The notes beneath the pieces were generated by a model that saw only the letters and a list, made by a program, of their open reading frames with translations, had not been told where the DNA came from and did no database searches. DNA of 40,851 nt from Thermoplasmata archaeon (GTDB taxonomy: Archaea > Thermoplasmatota > E2 > DHVEG-1 > B18-G2): NCBI GenBank assembly GCA_021161865.1, contig JAGGZU010000124.1, positions 1 through 40,851 on the forward strand, read 5' to 3'. Below, piece by piece: positions 4,489 to 40,851 of this stretch (position 1 is the first letter of the stretch; the number at the start of each line of letters is the position of its first letter). A program made the position numbers and the translations under genes.

Positions 4489-4573
4489 GCAGGGGTAGCC
4501 AAGCCTGGTCAACGGCGCAAGGTTCAGGGCCTTGTCCTGCAGAGGTCCAAGGGTTCGAATCCCTTCCCCTGCA
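4489..4573 (+). tRNA. tRNA-Leu (anticodon CAG), class II with a long variable arm
   Basis: Acceptor GCAGGGG/CCCCTGC, anticodon stem CAAGG/CCTTG with loop TT-CAG-GG, variable arm TCCTGCAGAGGTC, T arm AAGGG-TTCGAAT-CCCTT, discriminator A. Confidence 0.9.
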
Positions 4574-26764: not shown

Positions 26765-27177
26765 TGTTCACCCCTCAAAGGATTCGGACCAATCTCCTTT
26801 ATTTCTTCAACAAACTCCTTCACCACGTTAGCAAACTTTTGTCCCTCAGAAGCAGAAACATACTCAAACCTCACCCTCCGAGGATTTATATTAAGCTGCT
26901 GAAGCAACTCCTTAAGCAAAATAACCCTTCTGTTAGCCTTGTAATTACCAGACTGATAATGACAGTCACCAGGGTGACAACCAGCTATAAGCACACCATC
27001 AGCCCCTTTTTTCAACGCTTCAAGCACAAAAACAGGGTCAACCCTCCCAGAGCACATGACCCTAATTGGTTTAACATTAGCAGGATAAATGAGTCTACTT
27101 GTACCAGCGAGATCAGCGCCAGCATAAGCACACCAGTTGCATAAAAAAGCAACAATATTTGGTTCAAAATCGCTCAT
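26761..27177 (-). CDS. mvhD: Methyl-viologen-reducing hydrogenase delta subunit (MvhD, [2Fe-2S])
   Basis: AFLCNWCAYAGADLAG...VMCSGRVDP...GADGVLIAGCHPGDCHY is the MvhD/FlpD signature. Confidence 0.9.
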   Translation of the reverse strand: MSDFEPNIVAFLCNWCAYAGADLAGTSRLIYPANVKPIRVMCSGRVDPVFVLEALKKGADGVLIAGCHPGDCHYQSGNYKANRRVILLKELLQQLNINPRRVRFEYVSASEGQKFANVVKEFVEEIKEIGPNPLRGEQ

Positions 27178-29150
27178 GCTTCACCTCCCAACACATCAAC
27201 CACCGCCAGAATCTGATCGTCCTTGAACCCCTTCTGCTGCATAGCTCCAGATGGACAAGCAGCGACACAACTACCGCATCCCTTACAAAGTGCTTCAACA
27301 ACCCTTGCAACATACTTATTATCCTCTTTTTTCATCAGTTCTATAGCGTTGAAACTACAAACAGAAACACAAGTAGCGCAACCTGAACAAAAATCCTCAT
27401 CAACAAAAGCTATAAGCGGTTCAGCCTCCAACTCCTCCTTAGACAGTATGTTAGCCGCGCGAGATGCTGCTCCACTCGCCTGAGCAACACTATCCTGAAT
27501 ATCCTTAGGACCCTGACAGCAACCAGCTATAAAAATACCATCTGTGAAAGTATCCATTGGTTTAAGCTTAGGATGAGCCTCCAAAAAGAAACCATCGGCA
27601 CCTCTTGACACATGCAGAATCTTACCAAGGTCGGAAGAGTCATTCCTTGGAACAACCGCTGGAACCAAAACAACCAAATCCGTTTTAATCTCAAAAAGCT
27701 TGTTCGTCATCGTATCAAAAACATCAATAGTTAAACCATCCTTCTTCTCTTTCACCTCAGATGGGCGACCTCTGAAAAAGTTTGTTTTAACACCTCTTAT
27801 CCGCCTGTAAAACTCCTCATACCTTTTACCAAAAGAACGAATATCTGTGTAACAAATATTAATCTCAACATCATCACCAAGATGCTCCCTCAAAAGATAA
27901 GCCTGCTTCAAAGCAGTCATACAACCAACACGGCAACACCACGTGCAAACGGTTTCGTCACGTGAACCAACACAAAGAACAAAGGTTACACTCCCCGGCT
28001 TCCTTTGATCAGAGGGACAAACTATTTCACCACCGGTTGGACCAGAAGAACTAATAAGCCTTTCAAGCTCAAGAGTCGTTATAACATCCTTATAACGAGA
28101 ATAACCATACTCGTACAAAGCAGAGGGATCCAGCAGATCATAACCTGTTGCAACCACTATAACTCCAACCTCAAACTCCACCAACTCCTCCCTCTGAGTG
28201 AAATCAATAGCTTCTGCTTCACAAACATCCTGACACGCTGGCGACCTACCACATTTACCGTACCTGAGAAACAAACACTGTTCAGGGTCAATCGTAGCCT
28301 TCAAAGGGATAGCTTGAGGAAATGGTATATAAACAGCACCCCTCTTACCCAGGTTCATGTTGAACTCATCCGGAACCTTACCCTTCATCCTGCAAACATT
28401 AACGCAATCACCGCAACCGGTGCATTTATCAAAATCAACGTACCTTGGTTTCCTAACAACCTTAACCCTGTAGTTTCCAATGCTTCCATCAACACTAACC
28501 ACCTCAGAATAAGCAAATAACTCAATGTTTGGATGATTCTTCACATCCATCATCTTAGGAGTGAGTATACAAGAAGCGCAGTCCAAAGTTGGAAACGTTT
28601 TGTCAAGCTGAGCCATCCTACCCCCTATACTCGGCTCCTTCTCAACAAGATAAACATGGAAACCCTTCTCAGAGAGATCAAGAGACGCCTGAATACCAGC
28701 TATACCACCACCAACAACCAAAGCCTTAGGTGTAACCTTAACCTTCTCCCTAACTAATGGTTCAAGTAGTCTAACCTTCGCAACCGCACCCTTAACAAGC
28801 AACTTAGCTTTCTCCGTAGCCTCCTTTCTATCCGGGTGAACCCATGAACACTGCTCCCTGATGTTAGCGATTTCAAGAACAAAAGGATTTAAACCAGCCT
28901 CCTCAACAACCCTCCTAAAAGTATGCTCATGCATCTGCGGAGAACAACTTGCTACCACAACACCATCCAGTTTAAACTTTTTAATAGACTCCTTGATAAG
29001 GTTTGCACCATTATCGGAACACATGTACTTGTAGCTTTTACTAACCACAACACCATCGAGTTTACCCGCGAAATCAACAACCTCGTCAACGTCAACAGTT
29101 GCAGCAATGTTAACACCACAATGACAAACAAACACACCAATCCTATCCAT
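27174..29150 (-). CDS. hdrA: Heterodisulfide reductase subunit A (FAD, multiple [4Fe-4S]), set 1
   Basis: It has VFVCHCGVNIA, the FAD fingerprint VVGGGIAGIQASLDL, inserted and C-terminal ferredoxin motifs (CTGCGDCVNVC, CSGCATCVSVC, CKGCGSCVAACP), and no in-frame TGA. Confidence 0.9.
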   Translation of the reverse strand: MDRIGVFVCHCGVNIAATVDVDEVVDFAGKLDGVVVSKSYKYMCSDNGANLIKESIKKFKLDGVVVASCSPQMHEHTFRRVVEEAGLNPFVLEIANIREQCSWVHPDRKEATEKAKLLVKGAVAKVRLLEPLVREKVKVTPKALVVGGGIAGIQASLDLSEKGFHVYLVEKEPSIGGRMAQLDKTFPTLDCASCILTPKMMDVKNHPNIELFAYSEVVSVDGSIGNYRVKVVRKPRYVDFDKCTGCGDCVNVCRMKGKVPDEFNMNLGKRGAVYIPFPQAIPLKATIDPEQCLFLRYGKCGRSPACQDVCEAEAIDFTQREELVEFEVGVIVVATGYDLLDPSALYEYGYSRYKDVITTLELERLISSSGPTGGEIVCPSDQRKPGSVTFVLCVGSRDETVCTWCCRVGCMTALKQAYLLREHLGDDVEINICYTDIRSFGKRYEEFYRRIRGVKTNFFRGRPSEVKEKKDGLTIDVFDTMTNKLFEIKTDLVVLVPAVVPRNDSSDLGKILHVSRGADGFFLEAHPKLKPMDTFTDGIFIAGCCQGPKDIQDSVAQASGAASRAANILSKEELEAEPLIAFVDEDFCSGCATCVSVCSFNAIELMKKEDNKYVARVVEALCKGCGSCVAACPSGAMQQKGFKDDQILAVVDVLGGEA

Positions 29151-29167
29151 TCACGCTTCCTCCACTT

Positions 29168-30031
29168 TCAAACCTTCAACTTATCCACAGGGCTGAGATT
29201 CAAATCCAAACCAAGCTTCCTCTCATCCAAACCAAAAGCTAAACCAAGCAGCTGAGTAAGATAAAACACAGGAACCTCCAGTTTAGCAGCAACAGTTTCA
29301 CCAGCCTTCTTCTGCCTTGAATCAAACATCCTCTGACACCATGGACAAACCGTCACCAAACCATCAAAACCATGCTCCTCAACAGCCTGGAGTTTCTGAC
29401 CGGTTTTCGTTAAAGCAGACTCAGGCAGATTAACCAACAACAAACCACCGCAACAATCGAGTTTCTCAGCATAATCCATTGTTTCAGCACCCAAAGCCTC
29501 AAGAACCGCCTCAATCTTCATGGGGTTCTCAGAATCAACAGGTCTACCAATCTCACTTGGTCTAACCAGATGACAACCATAATGTGACGCAATCTTCAAA
29601 CCCTTCAAAGGCTTCTTCACATGTTTTTTAATCTCCTTAACACCAACATGATCATACAATAAATCAACAGTGTGAACAACACCAACTTTACCCTTATACT
29701 CCAGGTCTTCGGAAGCAAGCATCTCGTTAACCCTGCTCCTCATCCCTCCATCGTTGTCTAAAATGTTTTTACATTCACTTAAAGCAAAATGACACACACT
29801 GCAGGGAACAAAAAGATCAAAACCCTGCTGTTCAGCGATCGCAAGATTCCTTGCAGAAAGATACAAAGTCAAAAGCTGATTAATACTTTTCACAGGTTCA
29901 CCGCAACAAGAAAAGTTTTCCACATCAACCAGCTCAACGCCCAACACTGGGAAAACCTCCCTAATAGAAAGCTCGTAACCATACTGCTCCGTCTGCATCA
30001 CACAACCCGGGTACAGAGTATATTTTTTCAT
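29168..30031 (-). CDS. hdrB: Heterodisulfide reductase subunit B with two complete CCG motifs, set 1
   Basis: Motif 1 is PGC...SCCGEP...VPCSVCH. Motif 2 is HYGCH...DCCGG...VCPWCQ. Both fit CXnCCXnCXXC. Confidence 0.9.
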   Translation of the reverse strand: MKKYTLYPGCVMQTEQYGYELSIREVFPVLGVELVDVENFSCCGEPVKSINQLLTLYLSARNLAIAEQQGFDLFVPCSVCHFALSECKNILDNDGGMRSRVNEMLASEDLEYKGKVGVVHTVDLLYDHVGVKEIKKHVKKPLKGLKIASHYGCHLVRPSEIGRPVDSENPMKIEAVLEALGAETMDYAEKLDCCGGLLLVNLPESALTKTGQKLQAVEEHGFDGLVTVCPWCQRMFDSRQKKAGETVAAKLEVPVFYLTQLLGLAFGLDERKLGLDLNLSPVDKLKV

Positions 30032-30043
30032 CTAAACTTCCCC

Positions 30044-30571
30044 TTACACCTTCTCAACAGCCAGTTTAGTCAAAACCATCTGAAACTTAGAAGCATCCTT
30101 TGGTTTAGAAACCCTTGGTAAACCAAGATCTTCTCTCCTCCTCGTTTTCATATCCCGTGTCTGTACCTCCTGAACATCCTGAATCAAACCCATTGACAAA
30201 ATCGACTGAAGCATACTAGTGTAGTTACCAGGAATCTGCTTACCTCCCATAACAGCCAGGTTTTTCAAAGCAAACAAAACATCAACAGGTGAAACCTTCT
30301 GCGGGCAACGTTCCCTGCATTTAAAACAACTCATACAAGTCCAAATAACATCAGAGTTAACCATCTCATCAATCAAACCACGTTTAAGCAAAGCCATAAT
30401 CTTATGAGGCTCAAGCTCAAGAAGCTTATGAGCCTCACAACCAGAAGTACACTTAGCACACTGAAAACAGTAATCAGACAACTCATTCTGAAGCCTCAAC
30501 AACCTATTGTTTATCTCCTCCCTCAACTCAACCTGAGCTTCAGCCATGGACGTCAAATCCTTTATGCTCAT
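30044..30571 (-). CDS. hdrC: Heterodisulfide reductase subunit C (2x[4Fe-4S]), set 1
   Basis: It has CFQCAKCTSGCEA and CMSCFKCRERCPQ. I chose the ATG at 30571, since the track start at 30583 is TTG. Confidence 0.85.
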   Translation of the reverse strand: MSIKDLTSMAEAQVELREEINNRLLRLQNELSDYCFQCAKCTSGCEAHKLLELEPHKIMALLKRGLIDEMVNSDVIWTCMSCFKCRERCPQKVSPVDVLFALKNLAVMGGKQIPGNYTSMLQSILSMGLIQDVQEVQTRDMKTRRREDLGLPRVSKPKDASKFQMVLTKLAVEKV

Positions 30572-30633
30572 GATACCACCCAAAGGGGTTTTTAACAGGT
30601 TTGCTTAAGTACGGTGTTCTCCCATTTATCACA

Positions 30634-30652
30634 AAGTTAACTTTGTTAACTT
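30634..30652. promoter_or_regulatory. Inverted repeat AAGTTAAC-TTT-GTTAACTT in the hdrC (set 1) promoter/leader
   Basis: The 8-bp arms are perfect. The repeat lies about 25-45 nt downstream of a minus-strand TTTTATATA box (30678-30686) and about 65 nt upstream of the hdrC ATG. Confidence 0.35.
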
Positions 30653-30979
30653 CGCATTTTCCCAAATCACATATTCCTATATAAAACATGCTAATCTGTA
30701 GAACCTGCCAAGATAACTGCTAACACATTTTTTTTTGCATACCAAAGCATACATAAGTTGACTCTACACAAAACACAGCATCATAAACTCTGGACTCATC
30801 TACCACACAGATGTTTAAAAAGAATTTCTACATAGCATATAAAAGAGTTTCAAGTATCCCACATAGCGATCAGCTAGACATAATCCATGGGCCCTAAAGC
30901 ATGCAGCAGACACCCAAAAATAAAAAGGTGGTACACCATACCAATTACAATACCAGAATTTTCCTAGGACAGGGATAAT

Positions 30980-31452
30980 ATGATGGAATTAAAAAACGAG
31001 TTTATCATGCCACCTACCAAGCTTGGTTACTCCACAGGGGACGGCAAAGTTACAGATAGACATATAAACTTCTATAAAGTTAGAAGTAAACATCTTGGTG
31101 CTATCGCTATCGAACCAATGTATCTAGATAAGGGTTTAAGGGAAATACCCAACCAACTTGGTATAGACAACGATGACAAAATCAAAGGTTTAAAAAACTT
31201 GTTTATGCTGTACATGAAACAGATACAAAGGTTACAAAAATAGATGGTGACAAAATCTATATAGCTGGTAGAGAAAAAGGTGTTTTAGAAGGTGTAAATC
31301 ATATAATAATAGCCACCGGTATGAAAAGTTATAACCCTTTAGAGGAGAAACTTAGAGGTAAACTACCAGTATACGTAATAGGGGATGCCAAACAGGTTGG
31401 TAAAGCAAAGGATGCTATTGAAAGTGCCTTTGATTTAGCAAGTAAACTTTAA
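30980..31452 (+). pseudogene. Decayed NADH:flavin oxidoreductase (Old Yellow Enzyme / 2,4-dienoyl-CoA reductase-type) remnant: N-terminal about 80 codons, a frameshift, then an internal deletion joining to the extreme C-terminus
   Basis: Frame 1 gives MMELKNEFIMPPTKLGYS...HINFYKVRSKHLGAIAIEPMYLD...DDKIKGLKN. After the A6 run (31192-31197) the homologous reading continues in another frame as KKLVYAVHETDTKV. It then runs into ...HIIIATGMKSYNPL...PVYVIGDAKQVGKAKDAIESAFDLASKL, a typical C-terminus of the FAD/NAD domain. Confidence 0.65.
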
Positions 31453-32312
31453 ATTAACCTATCTACGGGACTTAGATTAAGGTTTAAACCCAACCTATCT
31501 GGATTTCTACCCACCGCCAGTCCCACAAGCTGTGTCAAATAGAACACCGGTACATCCAGTTTCTCCCCAATTGTACTCCCTGCCTTCTCTTGTTTCCCAT
31601 CCAAAAGTCTACCACCATAAGGACAAACGATAGCTAGTGCATCAAACCCTCTATCCTTAACCGCCTTCAGTTTCTCCCCGGTTTTTGTAAGAGCAGCCTC
31701 CTTATGAGTAACCATCAATGGTGCACCACAACAGTTCAGTTTCTCAGAGTAATTCCACGTCTCGCCACCAATAGCCTTTATAATCTCCTCCATCTTACTT
31801 GGATGCTCCGCAGCATCCGGTCTACCCGCCTCAGTATATCTAATGGTGTGACAACCATAATGGCAGGCTATCTTCCATTTAACAGGGTTACTAACCTTCT
31901 CCTTTATCCTCTCCACCCCAATTACATCATGCAACAGATCAACTGTGTGATAAATCTCTAAATCACCTCTGTACTCCAAGCCCTCATTTTCCTTCAGTTT
32001 TTTAACAATCTTCTCCCTAAGTTCCTTAGAGTTGTTGAGACGATTTTTTGTCTCAACTAAAGATAAATGACCCAAGGCGCAGGGAACAAACATATCCAAA
32101 CCCTTTTCCTCACATACCGCTATATTCCTAGCAGAAAGATACATCTGCATCAACAGATTAACGCTTCTCAAAGGCGCTCCGCAACAAGAGGTATTTTCCA
32201 AATCAACCAGTTCCACACCAAGATCAGGCAAAACCTCCCTAATGCTCATCTCATAAGCATACTGCTCTGCGGACATCACGCATCCAGGATAAAAACCAAG
32301 TTTTCTAATCAT
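31449..32312 (-). CDS. HdrB-like subunit with degenerate CCG motifs (terminal Cys of both motifs replaced by Gly), set 2
   Basis: It is a collinear 287-aa paralog of hdrB set 1. It has SCCGAP...VPCALGH and NCCGAP...VCPYGGR. I trimmed the track ORF (32522) to the ATG at 32312, because the extension overlaps hdrC2. Confidence 0.85.
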   Translation of the reverse strand: MIRKLGFYPGCVMSAEQYAYEMSIREVLPDLGVELVDLENTSCCGAPLRSVNLLMQMYLSARNIAVCEEKGLDMFVPCALGHLSLVETKNRLNNSKELREKIVKKLKENEGLEYRGDLEIYHTVDLLHDVIGVERIKEKVSNPVKWKIACHYGCHTIRYTEAGRPDAAEHPSKMEEIIKAIGGETWNYSEKLNCCGAPLMVTHKEAALTKTGEKLKAVKDRGFDALAIVCPYGGRLLDGKQEKAGSTIGEKLDVPVFYLTQLVGLAVGRNPDRLGLNLNLSPVDRLI

Positions 32313-32322
32313 TTTTACCGCC

Positions 32323-32853
32323 TCATAGTTTCTCCGCTGCCAGCTGAGAAAGAGCTGACATAAAACCATTAATATTCTTAGGATGGCCCCGCTTCGGTAA
32401 ACCAAGTTTCTCCCTACTCCAACCCTTATTATCCTTATCCAAAACCTCAACAGGTTCCTGTATATACCCTGTTGACAATATTCCCTGCAGCAGGTTTTGA
32501 TAATCTCCAGGTAGCGACCCACCAGACATCACGTACCAGTTTTTAAGGATAAACATCACGTCAACGGGGCTCATCTCCTGAGGACACCTTTCTTTACATT
32601 TAAAGCAGCCAACGCAAGCCCAGATTACATCAGAGTTCATCATCTCATCCAAAAAACCGGTTTTAACAGAAGCCATGACAGAATGAGGTTGAAGCTCAAG
32701 CAGTTTCATAGCCTCACAACCAGAGGTGCACTTGGCACACTGGAAACATAAACTAGGATTCTTTACACCAAGTACAGCCAACTGTCTTATAAGCTCCTTC
32801 TGTTTATCGCCCTCCGGTTTAGACATATTAAATAAATCCGTTAAACCCATCAT
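32323..32853 (-). CDS. hdrC: Heterodisulfide reductase subunit C, set 2
   Basis: It has CFQCAKCTSGCEA and CVGCFKCKERCPQ. By eye it is highly similar to set-1 HdrC. It shares an ATGA overlap with hdrA2. Confidence 0.85.
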   Translation of the reverse strand: MMGLTDLFNMSKPEGDKQKELIRQLAVLGVKNPSLCFQCAKCTSGCEAMKLLELQPHSVMASVKTGFLDEMMNSDVIWACVGCFKCKERCPQEMSPVDVMFILKNWYVMSGGSLPGDYQNLLQGILSTGYIQEPVEVLDKDNKGWSREKLGLPKRGHPKNINGFMSALSQLAAEKL

Positions 32854-35156
32854 TGCACCCCCTTCAAATACTCAGCCATTTCCCTGCAACTCCTCTGAAA
32901 CTTCTGCCCATCAGGTGTAAGAATCTCAACAAAACGAAGCCTGTTAACATCAACACCTTTCTCCTCCAAGATTTCCCTGGCTTTCATGTACTTCTCCTCA
33001 GCAGCCTCAGTACCATCTACATAATGACACAAACCCTTAGGACATGCAAAAATCATCACGCCCTTAGCTCCTTTCTCAAATGGATAAAGAATATCCTCTA
33101 CGCTTAACCTACCCACACAGGGCAGCTTCACCACCTTCACCATTGAAGGATACTCCATCCTGCTTGTACCAGCAATATCAGCAGCATTATAACCACAGGT
33201 TTCAGTGGTATAAGCAATAACAGAATCCGGATCCCCCTCCAATATACCATCAACCTGCGCCCTAAGCTGCGCCTTTGTGAGATGTCTTATCTCTATAGCA
33301 TCCTCAGGGCAAACAGAAACACATTTACCACAACCCTTACAAGCCATATCCACAACTTCATAGCTCTCAGTAATCGCGCCGTACCTACAAGCCTCTCTGC
33401 ACAAACCACATCTTGTACATTTATCTGGATCAATTACTGCAGTGGTTAAATCCACAGTGGCAACATCATCCTTCAATATCGTAGCAACCCGGCTAGCTGC
33501 AGCACCAGCATCGGTTATACTATCCTGAATAGACTTGGGCCCCTCCGCTGTACCAATGATGTAGATTCCCTCAGTTGTTGTATCAACCGGAGCAATCTTA
33601 ACATGCAACGGTGAAAGAAACTTATCCAGCCCATACTGTAAATGCAAAACCTTAGCCATCCTTTTTGTACCCTCAGACGGCTCCAAAGCCGTTGCCAAAA
33701 CAATTAAATCAGATTCAACCCGCATAAACTTATTAGTAGCCTTATCAAACACATCAAAAAACAGTCTACCATCAGGTGTATCCATTATCTGAGAAGGCCT
33801 ACCCATTATCATGTTGATATTCTTCTCACGGGCAAGAGCATAATACTCCTCATTCCTACGACCAGGTGCCCTAATATCTATGTAACACATGTTTATAGTA
33901 GCATCCGGAAACTTAGCACGCATAATCTTAGCGTTTTTAATAGAATACATACAGCAGATGTTGGAACAGTACTCCTTATGTCTCTTATCCCTTGAACCAG
34001 CACACTGAATAAAAGTGATGGTTTTCGGTTCCCTACCATCAGAAGGACACACAACTTTACCACCGGTTGGACCGGATGGAACAATCATCCTCTCCAGTTC
34101 CAAACCAGTTATAACATCAGGGTGCTCATAATAGTACTCAGTATTACTCAGATCAGTCTGCTGATAACCTGTTGCAACAACTATGGCCCCAACCTTAAGT
34201 TCCCTCCTCTCCTTTTTCTGATTGAAATCCACAGCATCAGCCGGACAAACCTTTTCACATATCCCACATACACCCTTGTTGATTTTTAAACAGGCCTCCT
34301 CTTCTATGAAAGCAGCGTTTGGAACAGAACCATCAAATGGTATATGAATAGCCTTTGTTTTATCTAAACCAAGATTGTAGTTGTTTGGAATAGATACTGG
34401 GCATTTCTCAGTACATAACCCGCAGGCTGTACATCTATCCAAATCAACGTACCTTGGTTTAGTTTCAACAGTAACATTGTAATCCCCAACTCTCCCAGAT
34501 AGACCAACAACCTCAGACAAGGTTAAAAGCTCTATATTTGGATGAGCTTTAACCTCATTCATTATAGGCGAAACCGTGCACATGGAGCAGTCATCGGTGG
34601 GAAAGGTTCTACCAAGTTTCGTCATGTTTCCACCAATGGACGCTTCCTTCTCAACAAGATAAACATGGAAACCCTTGTCTGCAAGTTCAAGAGATGCATG
34701 CATTCCCGCTATACCAGCACCTATAACAAGAACATCCCTATTAACAGGCACATCCACAGTACCTATAGGCTCATGATGCTGAACCTTATTAATGGCTCCT
34801 TTGATAATAGAATAAGCCTTCTTAGTAGCCTCCTCCCTGTCAGAGTGTACCCAGGAACAATGCTCCCTGATGTTAGCCATCTCAAACATGTAAGCATTCA
34901 GTTTCTGCTTCACACAATCCTTAAAAATATTCCAATGATGCTTAGGGGAACAACTGGCAATAACCAGTCTATCCACATCCTTGTTTTTATCCAAAGTATC
35001 AAGAATCATCTGCTGCCCTGCTTCCGAGCAGAGAAACATGTGATTCTTAACAACAAGGTTTTTATCCTTAGAAAACTCCTTTTTAAGTTTCTCAATATCC
35101 ACCGTTGCAGCTATGTTGTCCCCACAATGACATAGAAAGACTGCTGTTTTACCCAT
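32850..35156 (-). CDS. hdrA: HdrA fused to a C-terminal MvhD domain, set 2
   Basis: The HdrA core has VFLCHCGDNIA, VIGAGIAGMHASLEL and several ferredoxin motifs. The last roughly 130 aa are MvhD-like (TETCGYNAADIAGTSR...LPCVGRLS...GAKGVMIFACPKGLCHY). Confidence 0.85.
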   Translation of the reverse strand: MGKTAVFLCHCGDNIAATVDIEKLKKEFSKDKNLVVKNHMFLCSEAGQQMILDTLDKNKDVDRLVIASCSPKHHWNIFKDCVKQKLNAYMFEMANIREHCSWVHSDREEATKKAYSIIKGAINKVQHHEPIGTVDVPVNRDVLVIGAGIAGMHASLELADKGFHVYLVEKEASIGGNMTKLGRTFPTDDCSMCTVSPIMNEVKAHPNIELLTLSEVVGLSGRVGDYNVTVETKPRYVDLDRCTACGLCTEKCPVSIPNNYNLGLDKTKAIHIPFDGSVPNAAFIEEEACLKINKGVCGICEKVCPADAVDFNQKKERRELKVGAIVVATGYQQTDLSNTEYYYEHPDVITGLELERMIVPSGPTGGKVVCPSDGREPKTITFIQCAGSRDKRHKEYCSNICCMYSIKNAKIMRAKFPDATINMCYIDIRAPGRRNEEYYALAREKNINMIMGRPSQIMDTPDGRLFFDVFDKATNKFMRVESDLIVLATALEPSEGTKRMAKVLHLQYGLDKFLSPLHVKIAPVDTTTEGIYIIGTAEGPKSIQDSITDAGAAASRVATILKDDVATVDLTTAVIDPDKCTRCGLCREACRYGAITESYEVVDMACKGCGKCVSVCPEDAIEIRHLTKAQLRAQVDGILEGDPDSVIAYTTETCGYNAADIAGTSRMEYPSMVKVVKLPCVGRLSVEDILYPFEKGAKGVMIFACPKGLCHYVDGTEAAEEKYMKAREILEEKGVDVNRLRFVEILTPDGQKFQRSCREMAEYLKGVQ

Positions 35157-35163
35157 CTACTCA

Positions 35164-35553
35164 TCAACCCCTATCTTCCACCTCTTTAGCAGGTATAGGA
35201 TCTTTAATAACATCAGATGAATTAAAGGTGGATAAAAAGAAGTTTTTTGTAAGCTTTATAGCGCCAGTTGGACAAATGTCCTCACAAAGAGCACAAAAAC
35301 AACATTTACCTATATCCACCCTTGGATATTTCTTAGGATATTTCTCCTTATATTTCTCTGGTGCTTCAACCATATCTATGGCCTTATTTGGACATATCTT
35401 AGCGCAAAGATTACATGATATGCATTTGTCTACATCGTAACTATGCTCCCCTCTGTATCCATCCGGTATTGGATTAGACTCATGTGGAAACCTGGTTGTG
35501 ATGGGTTTAGAAACCATATTTTTTAATATTTTAGGGACTACCTTCATCTTCAT
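35164..35553 (-). CDS. NuoI / HycF / MbhN-type 2x[4Fe-4S] ferredoxin subunit
   Basis: It has GYRGEHSYDVDKCISCNLCAKICPNKAI and DIGKCCFCALCEDICPTGAIKLT. The length and spacing are typical of the TYKY-type subunit. Confidence 0.75.
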   Translation of the reverse strand: MKMKVVPKILKNMVSKPITTRFPHESNPIPDGYRGEHSYDVDKCISCNLCAKICPNKAIDMVEAPEKYKEKYPKKYPRVDIGKCCFCALCEDICPTGAIKLTKNFFLSTFNSSDVIKDPIPAKEVEDRG

Positions 35554-35559
35554 CTTTTA

Positions 35560-36681
35560 TCACCTATCGATATCAGCTGGGCATCCATTTAAACTCCAGT
35601 ATATCGCTGGTACATCAGCTATCTGTGCATCCCTCAATAGAAACTCTAAAACCGGTATAATATGCAGAAAACTTGGTCCTCGAATCTTTACTCTATATGG
35701 TTTGATTCCACCATCGCTAACCATATACACCCCTGCTTCCCCTCTTCCAATCTCATTCCTAATATATGCCTCACCTTCAGGTATCTTCATATTGAGTTTT
35801 GGTTTGCTAAACTCTTTTGCTATAAAATCTCCATCAGGTAAGTCTTTCAAAGCCTGTTTTATAATACCTACCGATTGTTCCATCTCCTCCAATCCTATTT
35901 GAAACCTTGCATAGGCGTCTCCTTCTTTTCTAACAGGTATCTCGAAATCAAATCTATCATACACCTCATATGGTTCTTCTTTCCTAACATCCGTCTTCAA
36001 ACCACTGGCTCTTAAAACAGGTCCTGTCGCACCTAACCTTATCGCATCCTTCAGATTCAATATACCTACGTCTTTTAATCTAGCTAGATTTGCAGGGTTT
36101 TCTGCTCTCTCAAAATCTATCATCTTCCCTATTTTATCCAAGACATTCAGTATCTTTTCCTCCGCTGATTCCGGCAAATCCCTTCTAACGCCACCAGGGC
36201 ATATATACCCTGCAGGATAAACTCTTCCACCAGTTATTAACTCAAACAAATCAAGTATAAAATCCCTGTAACCAAACGCCAGTTTGAACCCCGTATCAAA
36301 ACCTGTGCCAATTGAGATAATTCCATACCATATAAGATGAGACTGTATCCTGGACAACTCTGCCATTATAACCCGTATATATTTTGCTCTTTCAGGTACC
36401 TCCACACCCATCAACTCATCTACAGCCTCAGCGTGTACAAGATTCCAAGCCAAGGATTCGAGTACGCATATTCTATCAGATAAAACAGCATTTTGTAGAG
36501 GCAACCTATACTCCATTAATTTCTCAAAACCTCTATGCAGATACCCTGGATCTGCCCTCGCAGATACTATCCTCTCTCCATCCACTTTAAGCTTAACAGA
36601 GAAGTTACCGGAGCCAGGATGAGCTGGACCAAAGAACAACTCATAGGTATCATCATCTATCTTCTCCATAGTTCCCTGCAT
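35560..36681 (-). CDS. NuoD / group-4 [NiFe]-hydrogenase large-subunit-like protein retaining only 2 of the 4 Ni-Fe cysteine ligands
   Basis: It has FGPAHPGSG, GYLHRGFEKLME and a C-terminal ...GCPADIDR. The L1 position reads RICVLES (CxxE) and the L2 position reads NGCPADIDR (CxxD). The start was set to the ATG at 36681, 1 nt after the nuoC-like stop; the track start at 36789 overlaps nuoC by 107 nt. Confidence 0.8.
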   Translation of the reverse strand: MQGTMEKIDDDTYELFFGPAHPGSGNFSVKLKVDGERIVSARADPGYLHRGFEKLMEYRLPLQNAVLSDRICVLESLAWNLVHAEAVDELMGVEVPERAKYIRVIMAELSRIQSHLIWYGIISIGTGFDTGFKLAFGYRDFILDLFELITGGRVYPAGYICPGGVRRDLPESAEEKILNVLDKIGKMIDFERAENPANLARLKDVGILNLKDAIRLGATGPVLRASGLKTDVRKEEPYEVYDRFDFEIPVRKEGDAYARFQIGLEEMEQSVGIIKQALKDLPDGDFIAKEFSKPKLNMKIPEGEAYIRNEIGRGEAGVYMVSDGGIKPYRVKIRGPSFLHIIPVLEFLLRDAQIADVPAIYWSLNGCPADIDR

Positions 36682-36682
36682 T

Positions 36683-37201
36683 TCAGTCCCTCCCAAAATA
36701 GGCTGATTCTCTATCATTATCTTTGCTGTAATACTCATTTCTAACGTATTCTCTCCAATCAAAGTCCTTCCTAAATGGAGCTGGTCCATCCCAATCCTCT
36801 AAGAAGAGAGGTGATAAATCGGGATTTCCCTTGAATTTAACTCCAAACAGCTCATGCATCTCCCTCTCATGTATCTGAGAACTTTCACCCCATATTTTAG
36901 AAACGGTTTCAATCTCTGGATTTTCCCTATCTACCATCGTTTTAATGGTTATAAGGATTTTATCATCATAAGACCATATATGATAGGTTAACTCGTATTC
37001 TCCTTTTTTAGGCCAATCTGTTACAGAGAGGGCGGACAGATGTTTAAAACCAAGCTTATTTTTTACAAACATACATAAATCAATCAAATCCTCTGACGGA
37101 GACTTCACCCATATCCTTCTTTCTCTCTGAATCCCTACGTCCACCTTGAAATTTTTGGTTATATTCTCTATGATTTCCTTCTCTCTCACCGACTCAACCA
37201 T
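36683..37201 (-). CDS. NuoC / 30-kDa subunit-like protein
   Basis: LSALSVTDW...YELTYHIWS...SKIWGESSQIHEREMHELFGVKFKGNPD is the Complex1_30kDa signature. Confidence 0.8.
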   Translation of the reverse strand: MVESVREKEIIENITKNFKVDVGIQRERRIWVKSPSEDLIDLCMFVKNKLGFKHLSALSVTDWPKKGEYELTYHIWSYDDKILITIKTMVDRENPEIETVSKIWGESSQIHEREMHELFGVKFKGNPDLSPLFLEDWDGPAPFRKDFDWREYVRNEYYSKDNDRESAYFGRD

Positions 37202-37202
37202 A

Positions 37203-37637
37203 TTACTTCATCTCCTCTACATGTTTGAAGATCTTTCCAACCGCCTCAAATACTGCCTCTGGTCTAGGTGGACAACCCGGTATATACATTGTAACTGGCA
37301 GATAATCCTCCAATCTTTTTATTGTGTTATATGAATCCCAGTACATACCGCCCGTCATAGTACATGAACCCAGTGCGATTACCACCTTTGGCTCAGACGT
37401 CTGCTCATATATCCTCTGCGCTCTTTTGATTGATTTTAAAGTCTGATACCCCGCAATGAATAAAACATCTGCATGCCTAGGGTTTCCTACAACAATTATG
37501 CCAAATCTCTCCATATCCCATCTGGATCCAACAAGGGGAACCAACTCGCAGAATCCACAAGAGTTAAACCAGTTAAAAACCCATATCGCCTTTATAAGCC
37601 TCTTCATAACCTTTTTTTGTGGAGATTCCTCACTCAT
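37203..37637 (-). CDS. NuoB / group-4 hydrogenase small-subunit-like protein ([4Fe-4S], CxxC type)
   Basis: It has SCGFCE, GSCTMTGG and IPGCPPRPE. I chose the ATG at 37637, since the track start at 37667 is GTG. Confidence 0.8.
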   Translation of the reverse strand: MSEESPQKKVMKRLIKAIWVFNWFNSCGFCELVPLVGSRWDMERFGIIVVGNPRHADVLFIAGYQTLKSIKRAQRIYEQTSEPKVVIALGSCTMTGGMYWDSYNTIKRLEDYLPVTMYIPGCPPRPEAVFEAVGKIFKHVEEMK

Positions 37638-37715
37638 TTTATTGCCTTCTTTCAATTTTGTGTACACCCATTCAACATATCAATATCTAAGCCTCATCAG
37701 AGATTTTTTTCCAAT

Positions 37716-38669
37716 CTAACTCATCTTCTCCTTAACCGCATTCGTCAACTTAGGTAGAACCTCATAGAGGTCTCCCACAATACCATAGTCGGCGGATTTA
37801 AATATTAATGCTTCAGGATCCTTGTTTATCGCAACCACCACATCCGAGTCACGCATACCAGCTATATGCTGAATCTGACCAGAAATACCAACAGCAATGT
37901 AAAGCTTCGGTTTAACCTTATGCCCAGATAAACCAATCCAATGATCCTCAGACAACCATTTCAGATCAGCAGCAATCGGTCGAGAACAACCGGTTGTTCC
38001 CCTTAACACCTTGGCCAGCTCCTCCACCAATTGTATATCCTCTTTTTTCTTGAACCCTCTACCACAGGAAACAATGATTTCAGCGTCCTCAACATTCACT
38101 TCACCGGTTTTCATCTCCTTAACGTCAACAATCCTTGAAGGATACCTATCCACCTTCACCTCTTTTTTAATCACCTCCCCAGCTCTACTCTCATCTTCTG
38201 GGAGAGGGTCAAAAACCTTAGGAGGTATGGTAACAACAGCGGGTTTAGAGTTAAACCGTTCAACAGCAATGGCGTTACCACTGTAAACCACTCTCTCAGT
38301 GGTAAGTTTCCCATCCTTTACGTAAAGGTTTATGCAGTCTATCACACAACCTGTGTCAAGCTTTGCAGCTAGACGGGAGGCAAGCTCTTTACCGTTTTTA
38401 GTGGAACCGACAATAACAACCTCCTCGTTGGTTTCCTCAAGAATCTTCTCCATCGCGTCAGTGTACTCCTCGCCCTTGAATGTGTTCAACCCTGTTTTAA
38501 CCATGAAAACCCTGTCGGCACCATGCATTATATATTTTTTAGCCAAGCTTTCATCATCAGTGTCAAACACTACAGCAGTAGCCTTCTCATCCAACTCCTT
38601 GGAAACATCCTTGGCCTTAGCTATCAACTCAAGCATGTTTTTTTCATCATCAGAGTAAACAAGCACCAT
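37716..38669 (-). CDS. etfA: Electron transfer flavoprotein alpha subunit
   Basis: The C-terminal FAD-binding block is IVSCGRG...PKLYIAVGISGQIQHIAGMRDSDVVVAINKDPEALIFKSADYGIVGDLYEVLP. Confidence 0.85.
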   Translation of the reverse strand: MVLVYSDDEKNMLELIAKAKDVSKELDEKATAVVFDTDDESLAKKYIMHGADRVFMVKTGLNTFKGEEYTDAMEKILEETNEEVVIVGSTKNGKELASRLAAKLDTGCVIDCINLYVKDGKLTTERVVYSGNAIAVERFNSKPAVVTIPPKVFDPLPEDESRAGEVIKKEVKVDRYPSRIVDVKEMKTGEVNVEDAEIIVSCGRGFKKKEDIQLVEELAKVLRGTTGCSRPIAADLKWLSEDHWIGLSGHKVKPKLYIAVGISGQIQHIAGMRDSDVVVAINKDPEALIFKSADYGIVGDLYEVLPKLTNAVKEKMS

Positions 38670-38675
38670 CTTTCA

Positions 38676-39440
38676 TCACCTCAAAACACCCTCTTTAGCA
38701 AGACTATCAACCAGTTTCTCCACAGCCTCATCAACATCATCCTGATAAACAATGTTTTTCCTCTCCATAGAAACCCCTTTAACCTCAACCGTTTCCATCT
38801 TAGGAGTAAGCTCCTTCACACCAAGCGACTCCATACTCCACTCATTGATTGGTTTGTTAGCAGAGGCAAGTATCTGCATAAGACTGGGTAACCTGGGTTC
38901 ATTAATCTCTTTAGTAACCGTTATAAGCACAGGGTATGGTGACTCCATTGTTACAACAACATCACCCACATCCCTTTCAGCAACAACCTTATCCTTCTCA
39001 GCATCAACCTTCCTGGCGTATGTTATCTGAGGAATCCCAAGAAGACCTGCTAACCTCGGTCCCATCTGACCAGAAAACAAGTCAATTGATGCCTCCCCAC
39101 CAAGTACAATATCATAGTCTCCTATCTTCTTTATCGCAGCAGCCAACAACTTAGACACCACATCATAATCAGCGTTCTCAGGTGCAGAAACTATCACAGC
39201 CTCATCAGCACCCATAGCAAGTAGCTCCTTAACCCTCTCCTTAGCGTCGGATGAACTAACGGTTAAAACCGTGACCTTACCGCCATGTTTCTCCTTTATT
39301 CTTATTGCCTCCTCCACAGCGTTTTTATCGATATCACTTATCTTCAAAGGAACACCCTGCAACACCGGCTTCTTAGTGCTGGGGTCAACCTTGATCTCAG
39401 ACACATCAATAACCTGCTTCGCACAAACAACTATATTCAT
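38676..39440 (-). CDS. etfB: Electron transfer flavoprotein beta subunit
   Basis: MNIVVCAKQVIDVSE...DKNAVEEAIRIKEK...DIVLGGEASIDLFSGQMGPRLAGLLGIPQITY...INEPRLPSLMQI is typical EtfB. Confidence 0.85.
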   Translation of the reverse strand: MNIVVCAKQVIDVSEIKVDPSTKKPVLQGVPLKISDIDKNAVEEAIRIKEKHGGKVTVLTVSSSDAKERVKELLAMGADEAVIVSAPENADYDVVSKLLAAAIKKIGDYDIVLGGEASIDLFSGQMGPRLAGLLGIPQITYARKVDAEKDKVVAERDVGDVVVTMESPYPVLITVTKEINEPRLPSLMQILASANKPINEWSMESLGVKELTPKMETVEVKGVSMERKNIVYQDDVDEAVEKLVDSLAKEGVLR

Positions 39441-40851
39441 AGCCTAACCTCCATACCTTTCCTCTTCATCTCCAACTCCCTTAACTCCTTTCTCTTTATC
39501 TTACCGCTCTGCGTCTTAGGCAGCTCCTCAACAAACTCAATCTCCCTAGGATACTTGTAGGGTGCAGCATTCTCCTTCATAAACCGTTGAATATCCTTAA
39601 CCATCTCATCACCTGGTTCAAACTCCTCATTAAGTATAACAAATGCTTTAACAATCACACCCCTCATCTTGTCAGGGCTTGCAACCACTGCAGCTTCAAG
39701 AACAGCAGGATGCTCAATGAGAGCACTCTCCACCTCAAAAGGCGAAACCCTGTAACCAGCGGTCATAATAAGGTCATCACCACGAGCGGCAAACCAATAA
39801 TAACCCTCCTCATCCATGTAAACGGTGTCACCGGTTAAAAACCAACCGTTTTTAAAAGCCTCCCTTGTTTTATCAGGTTTATTCCAGTACTCAAGGAAAA
39901 GCCCAGGGTCATCATCTTGCACAGCAAGAGTACCAAGTTCACCAGGTTTAACAGGGTTACCTTTTTCATCAACAACCCCGCAGACATGACCGGGCTGAGG
40001 CTTACCACATGAACCCGGTTTAATCGGCAAACCAGGCATGTTTGAAAGATAAACCATGACCTCAGTCATACCGATACCATCATATATTGTTACACCAAAC
40101 CGTTTCTTCCACGCCTGAATAACCTCAGGGTTAAGTGGTTCACCAGCACTAATACAATGCCTAAGCTCAGATAAATCATACTTTTTCTCTGCATCCTTAA
40201 CCGTGAGAAACATTCTATACGCTGTGGGAACCGAGGCAAGATTAGTCACGCGGTATTTCTCAAGCAAAGAAAACCATTTCTCAGGATCAAACCTGCCATC
40301 ATAAAGTAAAACAGATGCTGCATGACGCCAGGCATAAATAAAAGCGTTACCCAACGGATAAATCCAGCTGAGAGCACCAGTATGAGCAACAATATCATCA
40401 GGTTTATAGACCTGCCAGTACAAAGCGTTTGGATCGTTACCAATAGCCCAACGATGAGCATGAACTGCACCCTTCGGCATACCCGTTGTTCCACTCGTGT
40501 AACAGAAAAACGCCATGTCATCAGGTTTAGTATCAGCCACCTTAAGGTGATGAGAAGCGTTTTTCATCAAATCATAAAACGAAAGTTGATCTTTCTCTGC
40601 ATCCCCGACAACAATGATATGTTTCAATGTTGGACAGGAATGTTTTACCTCCTCTACCTCCTTAACATACTCTGGTGTGGTCACAGCAAGAACCGCTGCA
40701 CTATCATTAATCCTGTACTCCACCTCCTTAGCTTTAAACATCACACTACTTGGAATAGGAACAGCACCAATTTTCACACCACCCAAAAAAACCATCTGGA
40801 ACTCAGGGACATTTGGTAAACGTATTAGAAAACGATCACCCTTTTTAACAC
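39437..40851 (-). CDS. AMP-dependent acyl-CoA synthetase/ligase, 5'-partial (continues beyond the window edge)
   Basis: It has FCYTSGTTGMPKGAVHAH, YDGIGMTE, GDTVYMDEEGYYWFAARGDDLI and PKTQSGKIKR. The reading frame stays open upstream of the first ATG (..VKKGDRFLIRLPNVPEFQ MVFLGG..), so the true start lies outside the window. Confidence 0.85.
   Translation of the reverse strand, partial: VKKGDRFLIRLPNVPEFQMVFLGGVKIGAVPIPSSVMFKAKEVEYRINDSAAVLAVTTPEYVKEVEEVKHSCPTLKHIIVVGDAEKDQLSFYDLMKNASHHLKVADTKPDDMAFFCYTSGTTGMPKGAVHAHRWAIGNDPNALYWQVYKPDDIVAHTGALSWIYPLGNAFIYAWRHAASVLLYDGRFDPEKWFSLLEKYRVTNLASVPTAYRMFLTVKDAEKKYDLSELRHCISAGEPLNPEVIQAWKKRFGVTIYDGIGMTEVMVYLSNMPGLPIKPGSCGKPQPGHVCGVVDEKGNPVKPGELGTLAVQDDDPGLFLEYWNKPDKTREAFKNGWFLTGDTVYMDEEGYYWFAARGDDLIMTAGYRVSPFEVESALIEHPAVLEAAVVASPDKMRGVIVKAFVILNEEFEPGDEMVKDIQRFMKENAAPYKYPREIEFVEELPKTQSGKIKRKELRELEMKRKGMEVRL

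Follow-up and report, generated by a model that had tools for sequence, protein, structure and literature searches.

Introduction

The membrane-bound reductase of sulfane sulfur (MBS, formerly Mbx) from Pyrococcus furiosus has been characterised (PDB 6U8Y; Wu et al. 2018; Yu et al. 2020, PMC7684303). A proximal cluster with three Cys ligands is the catalytic hallmark of its sulfane-sulfur (polysulfide) reduction, and its large subunit MbsL has lost two of the four NiFe cysteines while keeping C85 and C385 (PMC7684303). The catalytic chamber is formed jointly with MbsM, and the β1-β2 loop of MbsL is part of a three-loop link to the membrane arm (PMC7684303). HdrA2B2C2 of Methanosarcina acetivorans, the second described system that is close to the subject of this report, is a bifurcating heterodisulfide reductase dependent on F420H2 and ferredoxin (Yan et al. 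2017, summarised in PMC6085437). Here we describe a gene chain in which relatives of both systems stand side by side. The stretch analysed, referred to below as the window, is the whole 40,851-bp contig of a metagenome-assembled genome (MAG) named 'Thermoplasmata archaeon', from an uncultured archaeon of sediment. Its segment 31449-40851 carries ten co-directional, almost gapless genes, all on the minus strand, for an acyl-CoA synthetase (acs, cut by the contig end), the electron transfer flavoprotein Etf (etfB and etfA), an MBS-like module (mbsJ, mbsK, mbsL and mbsN, together mbsJKLN) and a heterodisulfide-reductase-type set (hdrA2, hdrC2 and hdrB2, together Hdr2).

An Hdr-coupled energy-converting system has precedent, because Asgard archaea are predicted to have MBH-like complexes that carry a peripheral Hdr domain (groups 4l/4q; bioRxiv 10.1101/2024.07.04.601786) and syntenic blocks of Hdr, group 3 and group 4 genes are known in Atabeyarchaeia and Freyarchaeia (PMC11291895). 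Neither a NiFe-free MBS-type arm associated with HdrA2C2B2 nor an Etf junction of this kind was found in the literature, the coverage of which was incomplete, so that this counts as weak evidence; the original prediction, made from the sequence of the window, had likewise recognised no characterised complex with this subunit set. That prediction took the ten products for one cytoplasmic, Etf-linked complex. The comparison with relatives leads to a different reading, to which we assign a probability of about 0.55: the chain is a lineage-specific mosaic operon of three independently conserved, self-standing cassettes, forming a co-regulated, ferredoxin-centred island in which the MBS-like arm is possibly wired to Hdr2.

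Results

Organization of the gene chain

The Etf cassette, mbsJKLN and hdrA2C2B2 each occur alone in relatives, and for this reason we regard the chain as a mosaic. The full ten-gene order was detected only in contigs of this same species. Within the window, the ten minus-strand genes of the original prediction were borne out by open reading frames (ORFs) and Pfam, and the gene identities agreed with Pfam for Etf, Oxidored_q6, Complex1_30kDa, Complex1_49kDa, Fer4, CCG and FlpD (Table 1). As read from the sequence, ATGA overlaps occur at acs/etfB and hdrA2/hdrC2, and 1-nt gaps at mbsJ/mbsK and mbsK/mbsL (nuoB/nuoC and nuoC/nuoD in the earlier naming); the gaps are 6 nt at etfB/etfA, 6 nt at mbsL/mbsN (nuoD/nuoI), 7 nt at mbsN/hdrA2 (nuoI/hdrA) and 10 nt at hdrC2/hdrB2. 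The spacing of −4 to +48 nt proposed earlier thus holds for the overlaps and the gaps of 1-10 nt, but not for etfA/mbsJ (etfA/nuoB), where 48 nt is obtained only with a GTG start at 37667. The ATG at 37637, which agrees with the N-termini of homologues (MSEESPQ versus MAKESPQ), leaves 78 nt, which makes this junction the widest and the only loose one of the chain, the other eight of nine junctions being overlaps or gaps of at most 10 nt. Only a weak TTAGATAT was found in the 78-nt spacer upstream of mbsJ, while the upstream regions of other cassettes show clear TATA-like boxes by eye.

The reading frame of acs meets no upstream stop codon within the contig and runs off its end. Related contigs and loci are designated below by L numbers; on L001 the complete acs gene encodes 545 aa. 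L001 and L002, near-identical contigs from two other assemblies, extend the sequence beyond position 40851. There a gene for a 388-aa acyl-CoA dehydrogenase (ACAD), the kind of enzyme that had been envisaged at this place, lies upstream of acs across a 22-nt gap, and it is preceded in turn by a gene for a secreted NosD/β-helix protein. NuoH/L/M/N-type genes were absent from the chain, from the region upstream of it on L001/L002 and from the 40.8-kb contig. The NosD/β-helix gene of L001 (710-1933) is located 18 nt upstream of ACAD, and a NosD/β-helix-like gene was also observed on L165 (118-1317), about 6 kb from the mbsJKLN-hdrA2C2B2 unit described below.

The Etf cassette is interrupted in this lineage

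All best solved matches of both Etf subunits are bifurcating Etfs, including CarD 6fah_B (1e-38) and 5ol2_B for EtfB, and 7koe_B, 5ol2_A and 4kpu_A for EtfA, which carries no N-terminal ferredoxin domain. The second (bifurcating) FAD site is marked by a GRQAIDGDTAQVG-type motif. EtfB of the window reads GGEASIDLFSGQMG at this position, the scaffold being conserved and the β-FAD motif being DLFS where bifurcating Etfs read DGDT. ACAD gave Bcd of the bifurcating Bcd-Etf complex as its best solved match (5ol2_C, 2.6e-144), the best NCBIfam model for acs was MbcS, under the cut-off, and the HpaB-family protein encoded farther downstream in the window matched 4-hydroxybutyryl-CoA dehydratase (1u8v_A, 1.7e-100).

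The genomic context of Etf was surveyed by a metagenome scan with EtfA, which gave contigs at 64-77% EtfA identity. The order ACAD-ACS-EtfB-EtfA is conserved in the contigs long enough to show it, with ACAD 81-86% identical. Directly after etfA, 31 related contigs carry a gene of about 176 aa (DUF6125), followed in most of those long enough by an AbfD-like gene of about 485 aa; an Mbs or Hdr2 gene after etfA was found in none of these 31. The DUF6125 and AbfD-like genes of the window are 68-76% identical to the genes right after etfA in L086-L119, and the synteny continues into BirA and its neighbours. Since these genes follow etfA directly in relatives but etfA and DUF6125 lie about 13.9 kb apart in the window, the redox block looks inserted into an older operon. 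The simplest reading of this synteny is that an insertion of about 13.9 kb separated etfA from DUF6125 in this lineage, bringing in mbsJKLN-hdrA2C2B2, a degraded spacer and hdrC1B1A1-mvhDGA-hycI. The 78-nt etfA/mbsJ spacer would be the seam of this insertion, and the segment 21819-23809 would be the downstream half, displaced by it, of the ancestral Bcd-ACS-EtfBA cassette. The link of Etf to the rest of the chain is probably a species-specific rearrangement, and the Etf part itself is most likely ordinary, a Bcd-Etf/4-hydroxybutyryl-CoA dehydratase operon split by this rearrangement.

Two other lineages show Etf genes close to Hdr-type genes. On L108 (11779-12129), the order ACAD-ACS-EtfB-EtfA-DUF6125 is followed, at the contig end, by an HdrC gene 78% identical to HdrC1 of the window, and in this second lineage, too, the Bcd/Etf cassette may have the canonical Hdr1(-Mvh) operon beside it. 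On L167 (730-8070; HdrA2 59% identical), genes for HdrA::MvhD, an extra 640-aa CCG-domain protein, HdrC and HdrB, in this order, form an Hdr2-type cluster, immediately downstream of which EtfA-EtfB and an ADP-forming acyl-CoA synthetase are encoded in convergent orientation. A looser Etf-Hdr association may recur in L108 and L167.

Assignment of the mbsJKLN module

All four hydrophilic subunits are present in the second cassette, in the gene order mbsJ, K, L and N. MbsL of P. furiosus was the best solved-structure match of the large subunit (6u8y_L, 2.3e-97), with complex I (2fug_4, 2.9e-72) and MBH (6cfw_L, 2e-48) both well behind, and MbsJ was the best for the small subunit (6u8y_J, 8.6e-38). 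The CxxC pairs of the NiFe motifs L1 (RxCGxCxxxH) and L2 (DPCxxCxxH/R) are missing from the window protein and from all 70+ aligned homologues; FGPAHPGSGNF replaces the former and NGCPADIDR the latter. A [NiFe] hydrogenase is ruled out by the absence of these motifs, and a quinone reductase by the absence of the quinone ligands of complex I: when the protein is aligned to 2fug_4 (numbering of Nqo4 of Thermus thermophilus), His38 falls on a gap (HPGS.GNF versus HPSTHGV) and Tyr87 is replaced by Val (RICV versus RMDY). The cysteines equivalent to MbsL C85 and C385 are retained (RICV and NGCPADIDR, conserved with respect to 6u8y_L). A single conserved Cys is found in the N-terminal loop of the MbsJ-like subunit, FNWFNSCGF[C/T/A]E (SCGF[C/T/A/I]E across more than 60 homologues), and the other conserved ones are those of GSC and PGCPP, which predicts a proximal [4Fe-4S] cluster with three conserved Cys ligands. 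Based on the best matches to MBS structures, the absent NiFe motifs, the retained C85/C385 equivalents and the three-Cys cluster, the module is assigned as an MBS/Mbx-type peripheral arm. The sulfur or disulfide acceptor suggested earlier for the whole chain would fit the MBS-type active-site signature.

A search for the module family gave more than 7,600 matches, the best 120 of which were all at least 74% identical. After a scan with one genome per species, 80 loci were obtained, onto which the window proteins were mapped and whose flanking ORFs were clustered. The four-gene cassette (B-C-D-I in Nuo terms) is kept in all 80 loci, either in a membrane operon or stand-alone, and the MbsN-like protein is 47-85% identical in every cassette examined. 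Membrane operons were found in Altiarchaeota, Desulfobacterales, Dehalococcoidales and several archaeal MAGs (large subunit 63-70% identical; L033-L048, for example), and their membrane genes cluster with those of L051, which belong to Pfam MnhE, MnhG, MbhD, MbhE, MnhB, NuoK-like, Proton_antipo_M and NADHdh. Stand-alone cassettes, present in about 45 genomes, include the nearest relatives, from Thermoplasmata (68-86%), some Dehalococcoidia and Atribacterota, and also those of Heimdallarchaeia (63%). They form one clade, sister to the membrane-linked clade, in a rough neighbour-joining tree, and most of them have by eye an AT-rich, TATA-like sequence upstream, consistent with promoters of their own. 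The large transmembrane proteins encoded beside the cassettes of Heimdallarchaeia and Thermoplasmata were considered as hidden NuoL/M/N and rejected, Pfam identifying them as MMPL transporters, a permease, PFOR and others.

HdrA/MvhD-type soluble modules adjoin stand-alone cassettes in at least seven Thermoplasmata loci. On L013 and L026, Pfam identified HdrA-like giant flavoproteins, MvhD, FrhB-like genes and thioredoxin next to the cassette, and the genes upstream of the cassette on L029/L061 were read by eye as FdhA, FdhB and MvhD.

Further associations were observed within the family. In seven distant bacterial Mbx-like operons (L064, L069, L072, L074, L082, L083 and L084, at about 11.1-13 kb), a fusion appears to join the NuoI-like ferredoxin to a protein of some 590-630 aa, which clusters with pyridine-nucleotide-disulfide oxidoreductases; the hosts belong to Spirochaetota, Fermentibacteria, Cloacimonadota and others. 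The fusion points to a fixed connection of an MBS/Mbx-type arm with a CoADR/NSR-like flavoprotein. In one archaeal clade, the Mbx-like operons have at their flanks FeThRed_B (6e-25), which resembles the catalytic subunit of ferredoxin-thioredoxin reductase (L027 18651-18914; also L033, L034 and L043), and further genes that recur beside the complete or split operons of this clade were read by eye as thioredoxin and Mrp/NBP35-type ATPase. The FeThRed_B and thioredoxin flanks hint at a thiol/disulfide connection of the family.

The Hdr2 cassette and the seven-gene unit

HdrA2 consists of a segment aligning to HdrA (residues 3-640; 8rvu_a, 1e-172), followed by FlpD (residues 646-765), this tail aligning with MvhD chains. 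The HdrA part has the FAD domain and both an inserted and a C-terminal ferredoxin domain. The best NCBIfam model, HdrA2 (NF040770), scored 859 bits against a cut-off of 1100 and was covered from 2 to 771 of its 777 positions. By this HdrA::MvhD type the set is separate from the adjacent Mvh-Hdr operon, as had been proposed. HdrB2 matched HdrB 9sfi_C (1.7e-51) and 5odc_B. A complete CCG motif was taken as Cx31-39CCx35-36CxxC, two such motifs ligating two non-cubane [4Fe-4S] clusters. HdrB2 departs from this pattern: its motifs read PCALGH and VCPYGG, where 5odc_B has VCNGCY and VCPFCH, the last Cys being Gly in both. Gly in place of the last Cys of the second motif was found in every HdrB partnered with this HdrA::MvhD clade, and the first motif has lost its last Cys, too, in the window and in L168 and L169. 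From its domain composition, Hdr2 is predicted to be a flavin-based bifurcating disulfide reductase of the HdrA2C2B2 type with an altered HdrB cluster site. Because the CCG motifs are incomplete, its substrate is unlikely to be handled exactly as CoM-S-S-CoB, and probably is not CoM-S-S-CoB; mcr or other methanogenesis genes were not seen in the window.

The original prediction looked to conserved gene order for its ten-gene chain. This was found for a part of the chain only: the seven-gene unit mbsJKLN-hdrA2C2B2 exists in five lineages, namely the window, L006, L016, L165 and L168. The genes stand in the same order with near-zero spacing across 71-88% HdrA2 identity (the mbsN/hdrA2 gap is 7 nt in the window and 5 nt in L168), and the divergence is congruent over all seven genes. 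Without mbsJKLN, HdrA::MvhD-HdrC-HdrB was found in L166, L169 and L170. L168 and L169, whose HdrA2 proteins are 87% and 85% identical to that of the window, share the flank PadR-MFS-NifX-like-DUF134-hdrA2C2B2; mbsJKLN intervenes between DUF134 and hdrA2 in L168 alone, so that close relatives differ cleanly in the presence or absence of the four-gene cassette. A C-terminal extension specific to Hdr-linked MbsN, which could serve as a docking signature, was not found. We regard the Mbs-Hdr2 pairing as real and conserved, and the unit as a candidate for a new Hdr-coupled variant of a complex-I-like enzyme.

Unrelated genes, for metallo-β-lactamase, radical SAM and aminotransferase proteins, are located downstream of the stand-alone cassette in some Thermoplasmata (L029-L031 and L061), and the same set precedes hdrA2C2B2 in L166 (7087-9915). 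Mbs and Hdr2 cassettes thus have a conserved genomic neighbourhood in common also where they lie apart.

Location of the membrane arm

The locus was described earlier as free of membrane subunits, and this is correct for the locus itself. It is probably not true of the enzyme, for three reasons: the operons are split in Thermoplasmata, the constraint on the stand-alone modules is unchanged, and the MBS chamber is shared with MbsM.

A nine-gene membrane operon is convergent with the cassette on L051, and on L027 the membrane genes begin 7 kb from the cassette. In Thermoplasmata, L171-L173 and L174/L175 carry the operon MnhE-MrpF-MnhG-MbhD-MbhE-MnhB-NuoK-like-antiporter-MbhI-like-MbsM, which ends at MbsM; no JKLN genes are present in these membrane operons of L171-L175, and housekeeping genes, for exosortase, PS decarboxylase or ribonucleotide reductase, come next. 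Such membrane-only Mrp-MbsM operons need a peripheral arm encoded elsewhere.

The membrane-linked and stand-alone modules were compared column by column. The mean column entropies of the two groups, in this order, are 0.61/0.48 for J, 1.20/1.26 for K, 0.77/0.76 for L and 1.09/1.03 for N, and the site profiles correlate with r = 0.70-0.83. Membrane-linked modules have 286 conserved positions; at 240 of these the stand-alone modules show the same residue with equal conservation, and only 7 turn variable. Near-fixed differences between the two groups were not detected. The β1-β2 loop of the large subunit hardly varies in either group. The alignments indicate no relaxation of constraint in stand-alone modules, and we think it rather probable that the arm is anchored to the membrane.

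Adjacent operon and other features of the contig

The canonical hdrCBA-mvhDGA-protease operon next to the chain, which had been recognised from the beginning, was confirmed by Pfam and by both NiFe motifs of MvhA (RICGVCPVAH and DPCFACASH). The 865-nt spacer between this Hdr1-Mvh operon and Hdr2 contains short ORFs of the opposite strand, among them one of 87 aa with a weak Oxidored_FMN match, probably the remnant of a decayed gene of the old-yellow-enzyme type. Upstream of hdrC1, at a distance of about 100 nt, stands a TTTTATATA box that is likely to be a separate promoter for the Hdr1-Mvh operon.

Elsewhere on the contig, one ORF (1354-2820) is a fusion of two domains, one of the OMPdecase/HUMPS family and one RraA-like aldolase domain; it is followed by a gene for a DUF362 protein with two [4Fe-4S] motifs (2799-3800) and, at 4489-4574, by tRNA-Leu(CAG).

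Table 1. Genes and spacers of the ten-gene chain and of the region downstream from it, in window coordinates
Feature	Position	Strand	Basis or remark
acs, AMP-forming short-chain acyl-CoA synthetase	39437..40851	-	Pfam AMP-binding and AMP-binding_C; N-terminus cut by contig end
etfB, electron transfer flavoprotein small subunit	38676..39440	-	Pfam ETF
etfA, electron transfer flavoprotein large subunit	37716..38669	-	Pfam ETF and ETF_alpha
AT-rich 78-nt spacer, etfA/mbsJ	37638..37715	-	Junction sequence; start codon set by homologue N-termini
mbsJ-like (NuoB-like) small subunit, proximal [4Fe-4S] cluster	37203..37637	-	Pfam Oxidored_q6
mbsK-like (NuoC-like) subunit	36683..37201	-	Pfam Complex1_30kDa, 7e-30
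mbsL-like (NuoD-like) large subunit, no NiFe site	35560..36681	-	Pfam Complex1_49kDa
mbsN-like (NuoI-like) subunit, 2x[4Fe-4S]	35164..35553	-	Pfam Fer4 families
hdrA2, HdrA fused to FlpD/MvhD, 768 aa; FAD, 4x[4Fe-4S], [2Fe-2S]	32850..35156	-	Pfam FlpD, Fer4 and FAD domains
hdrC2, 2x[4Fe-4S] subunit	32323..32853	-	Pfam Fer4_17, Fer4_8
hdrB2, two CCG domains	31449..32312	-	Pfam CCG x2
865-nt spacer, Hdr2 cassette/Hdr1-Mvh operon	30584..31448	.	Degraded opposite-strand ORF; TTTTATATA box
hdrC1-hdrB1-hdrA1-mvhD-mvhG-mvhA-hycI, canonical operon	23869..30583	-	Pfam
DUF6125	23273..23809	-	Pfam DUF6125
4-hydroxybutyryl-CoA dehydratase-like (AbfD-like) gene	21819..23276	-	Pfam HpaB_N/HpaB

Discussion

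If the chain is a mosaic operon, the following scheme can be proposed. The first cassette is the front half of a widespread six-gene unit for a Bcd/Acr-like enoyl-CoA reductase/acyl-CoA dehydrogenase, short-chain ACS, bifurcating-type EtfBA, DUF6125 and 4-hydroxybutyryl-CoA dehydratase, which, judging from its families, probably interconverts short acyl-CoA and enoyl-CoA with ferredoxin as co-substrate. Bcd-Etf and Mvh-Hdr1 would both be bifurcating systems that reduce ferredoxin. The MBS-like arm most likely oxidises reduced ferredoxin at the MbsN clusters and may use the open iron of the proximal cluster to reduce a substrate of the sulfane-sulfur type, and it probably docks on partners encoded at another place in the genome, a NuoH-like MbsM and an Mrp-type arm that pumps ions. 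Hdr2 could be coupled to this arm either through the ferredoxin pool or by docking of the fused MvhD on the iron-sulfur chain of the arm, as MvhD docks on MvhG, and a thiol/disulfide couple would then be tied to the same electron path. With the seven-gene unit and Mvh-Hdr1 presumably inserted into the Etf operon in this species, four systems would stand in one orientation, allowing a co-regulated, ferredoxin-centred energy metabolism.

Several points weigh against this mosaic reading. The tight packing after the insertion, together with L108 and L167, leaves room for a real functional link between Etf and Hdr. L169 has the unit without mbsJKLN and Hdr2 stands alone in several lineages; a physical contact between Mbs and Hdr2 is putative, being suggested by gene order, and the substrates and the direction of electron flow are put forward as proposals. 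A membrane arm for this genome was not found in a search with MbsM of L051 that covered the 40.8-kb contig and contigs of Thermoplasmata matches. L171 and L173 derive from two samples that also gave the window-species contigs L002 and L001, but a GC content of 36% versus 41.6% and a tetranucleotide correlation of 0.81 versus 0.93-0.96 among chunks of the window point to another genome, and they serve here only as examples of split operons. Bare four-gene cassettes that form a single clade and exist in several phyla are easier to explain if the module works alone, and a soluble C-MBS subcomplex (MbsJKLN) of P. furiosus could be purified in a stable form that reduces polysulfide (PMC7684303). 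The candidate RLF29809, about 1,480 numbers away from RLF28324-30 of the window species, was considered suggestive but no proof and was not used for this genome.

The alternative that survives best, although we consider it unlikely, is a soluble seven-subunit enzyme in which MbsJKLN, off the membrane, is plugged through the fused MvhD into HdrA2C2B2, with Etf not being part of it. It would be an analogue of MvhAG-MvhD-HdrABC, the [NiFe] module being swapped for an MBS-type iron-sulfur catalytic module, and would bifurcate or confurcate between ferredoxin, a thiol/disulfide and a sulfane-sulfur-type substrate. Such an enzyme agrees with the lack of membrane genes in the chain, upstream of it and on the 40.8-kb contig, with the single clade of bare four-gene units in Thermoplasmata, Heimdallarchaeia, Dehalococcoidia and Atribacterota, with the adjoining HdrA/MvhD-type soluble modules in at least seven Thermoplasmata loci, with the catalytic activity of C-MBS and with the very short mbsN/hdrA2 gaps in the window and L168. 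It is opposed by the identical site-by-site constraint in stand-alone and membrane-linked modules, even at the MbsL β1-β2 loop that provides coupling to the membrane arm in MBS, by the Thermoplasmata Mrp-MbsM operons that need a separately encoded arm, by the catalytic chamber that MBS makes together with MbsM and by the dispensability of mbsJKLN at this locus in L169.

Next comes a pure juxtaposition, in which the cassettes and Mvh-Hdr1 are independent, have only the ferredoxin pool in common and involve no specific Mbs-Hdr2 interaction. The occurrence of each cassette alone, the presence or absence of mbsJKLN within the same flank in L168/L169 and the TATA-like sequence seen by eye upstream of most stand-alone cassettes all speak in its favour. 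We nevertheless hold it to be quite unlikely, given that the order and near-zero spacing of Mbs-Hdr2 are kept in five lineages with congruent divergence at 71-88% HdrA2 identity, and that stand-alone cassettes neighbour HdrA-like and MvhD genes in other arrangements too. Still more doubtful is the broader proposal that the whole stand-alone mbsJKLN clade left the membrane and became, in Thermoplasmata, the catalytic input/output module of a bifurcating HdrA::MvhD-HdrCB enzyme, a soluble 'MBS-Hdr' complex that would couple ferredoxin with a thiol/disulfide couple and sulfane sulfur and would, in this species, draw acyl-CoA electrons through the adjacent Etf. One cytoplasmic bifurcating or confurcating super-complex of all ten (or eleven) products, in which acyl-CoA electrons pass through Etf into the NuoBCDI-like and Hdr modules, is highly improbable: the co-directional contiguity with overlaps or gaps of at most 10 nt at eight of nine junctions, the ACAD gene directly upstream and the Etf genes beside Hdr-type clusters in L108 (an Hdr1-like gene) and L167 (convergent, Hdr2-type) suit it, but its one loose junction, etfA/mbsJ (78 nt), is unique to this species, 31 related Etf cassettes go on with DUF6125 and none with Mbs or Hdr2, the Mbs-Hdr2 relatives L006, L016, L165 and L168 have no adjoining Etf genes, and the known reaction of the Bcd-Etf family requires no further partner.

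Returning to the mosaic operon with a possible Mbs-Hdr2 connection, if Mbs and Hdr2 work together, the Thermoplasmata of sulfidic sediments would gain a new link from bifurcation to a complex-I-like enzyme, and the unexplained Hdr sets of non-methanogens would gain a partner. The unit would also parallel the MBH-Hdr complexes predicted for Asgard archaea and offer one more example of how complex I evolved in modules from hydrogenases. Peripheral and membrane arms are commonly encoded at separate places, and it is easy to mistake genomes of this kind for ones with an incomplete complex I or with no more than an Mrp antiporter.

Comparison with known systems

The module resembles MBS in the order of the mbsJ/K/L/N homologues, in the loss of the same NiFe ligands, in the equivalents of C85 and C385 and in the three-Cys proximal cluster, and its relatives at 63-70% identity carry a full Mrp-type membrane operon. 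It differs from MBS in that membrane-arm genes are absent from this locus and the operon is shared with an Hdr2 set. The MbsJ-like loop lacks even the non-ligating C25 (FNWFNSCGF here, FCTGCGGIE in MBS), and the membrane arms of the relatives have one antiporter-like subunit and an MbhI-like protein, and are thus MBH-like rather than MBS-like. The identity of the large subunit to MbsL is only moderate by eye, and an MBS-type activity is a prediction.

Hdr2 shares with HdrA2B2C2 of M. acetivorans the fusion of HdrA to MvhD, the three-gene unit without a hydrogenase and the end-to-end match to the NCBIfam HdrA2 model. The A-C-B gene order is presumably common to both. Unlike the M. acetivorans enzyme, the window set has a sub-cut-off NCBIfam score, Cys losses in HdrB2 and an MBS-type arm directly upstream, and there is no sign of methanogenesis in the window, so that CoM-S-S-CoB and F420H2 cannot be assumed.

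The wiring proposed for Mbs-Hdr2, from a hydrogenase-derived pair through iron-sulfur clusters and MvhD to the HdrA FAD and HdrBC, follows that of MvhAGD-HdrABC (PDB 5ODC), a canonical copy of which is encoded next door. In contrast to this complex, the window module lacks a NiFe site, and its lineage is group-4/complex-I instead of group 3c; MvhD is fused to HdrA, and the contact between Mbs and MvhD is putative.

The clustering of ACAD, an AMP-forming CoA ligase and EtfBA, with bifurcating proteins as best solved matches, is as in the Bcd-EtfAB, CarCDE and acryloyl-CoA reductase systems (PDB 5OL2, 6FAH). Differences from these bifurcating systems are DLFS instead of DGDT in EtfB, an EtfA without a ferredoxin domain, NCBIfam scores that are all under the equivalog cut-offs, and the DUF6125 and 4-hydroxybutyryl-CoA dehydratase genes that the cassette normally includes. 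The clustering also resembles that of carB-C-D-E.

As in the predicted Asgard MBH-Hdr complexes and the syntenic blocks of Atabeyarchaeia and Freyarchaeia, a group-4-type module is associated here with Hdr, and Mvh-Hdr stands in the same block. Those cases are [NiFe] hydrogenases with the membrane arm alongside, whereas the module described here, the arm of which is not at the locus, is NiFe-free and MBS-like, has a Thermoplasmata host and is joined to an Hdr set of the HdrA::MvhD type.

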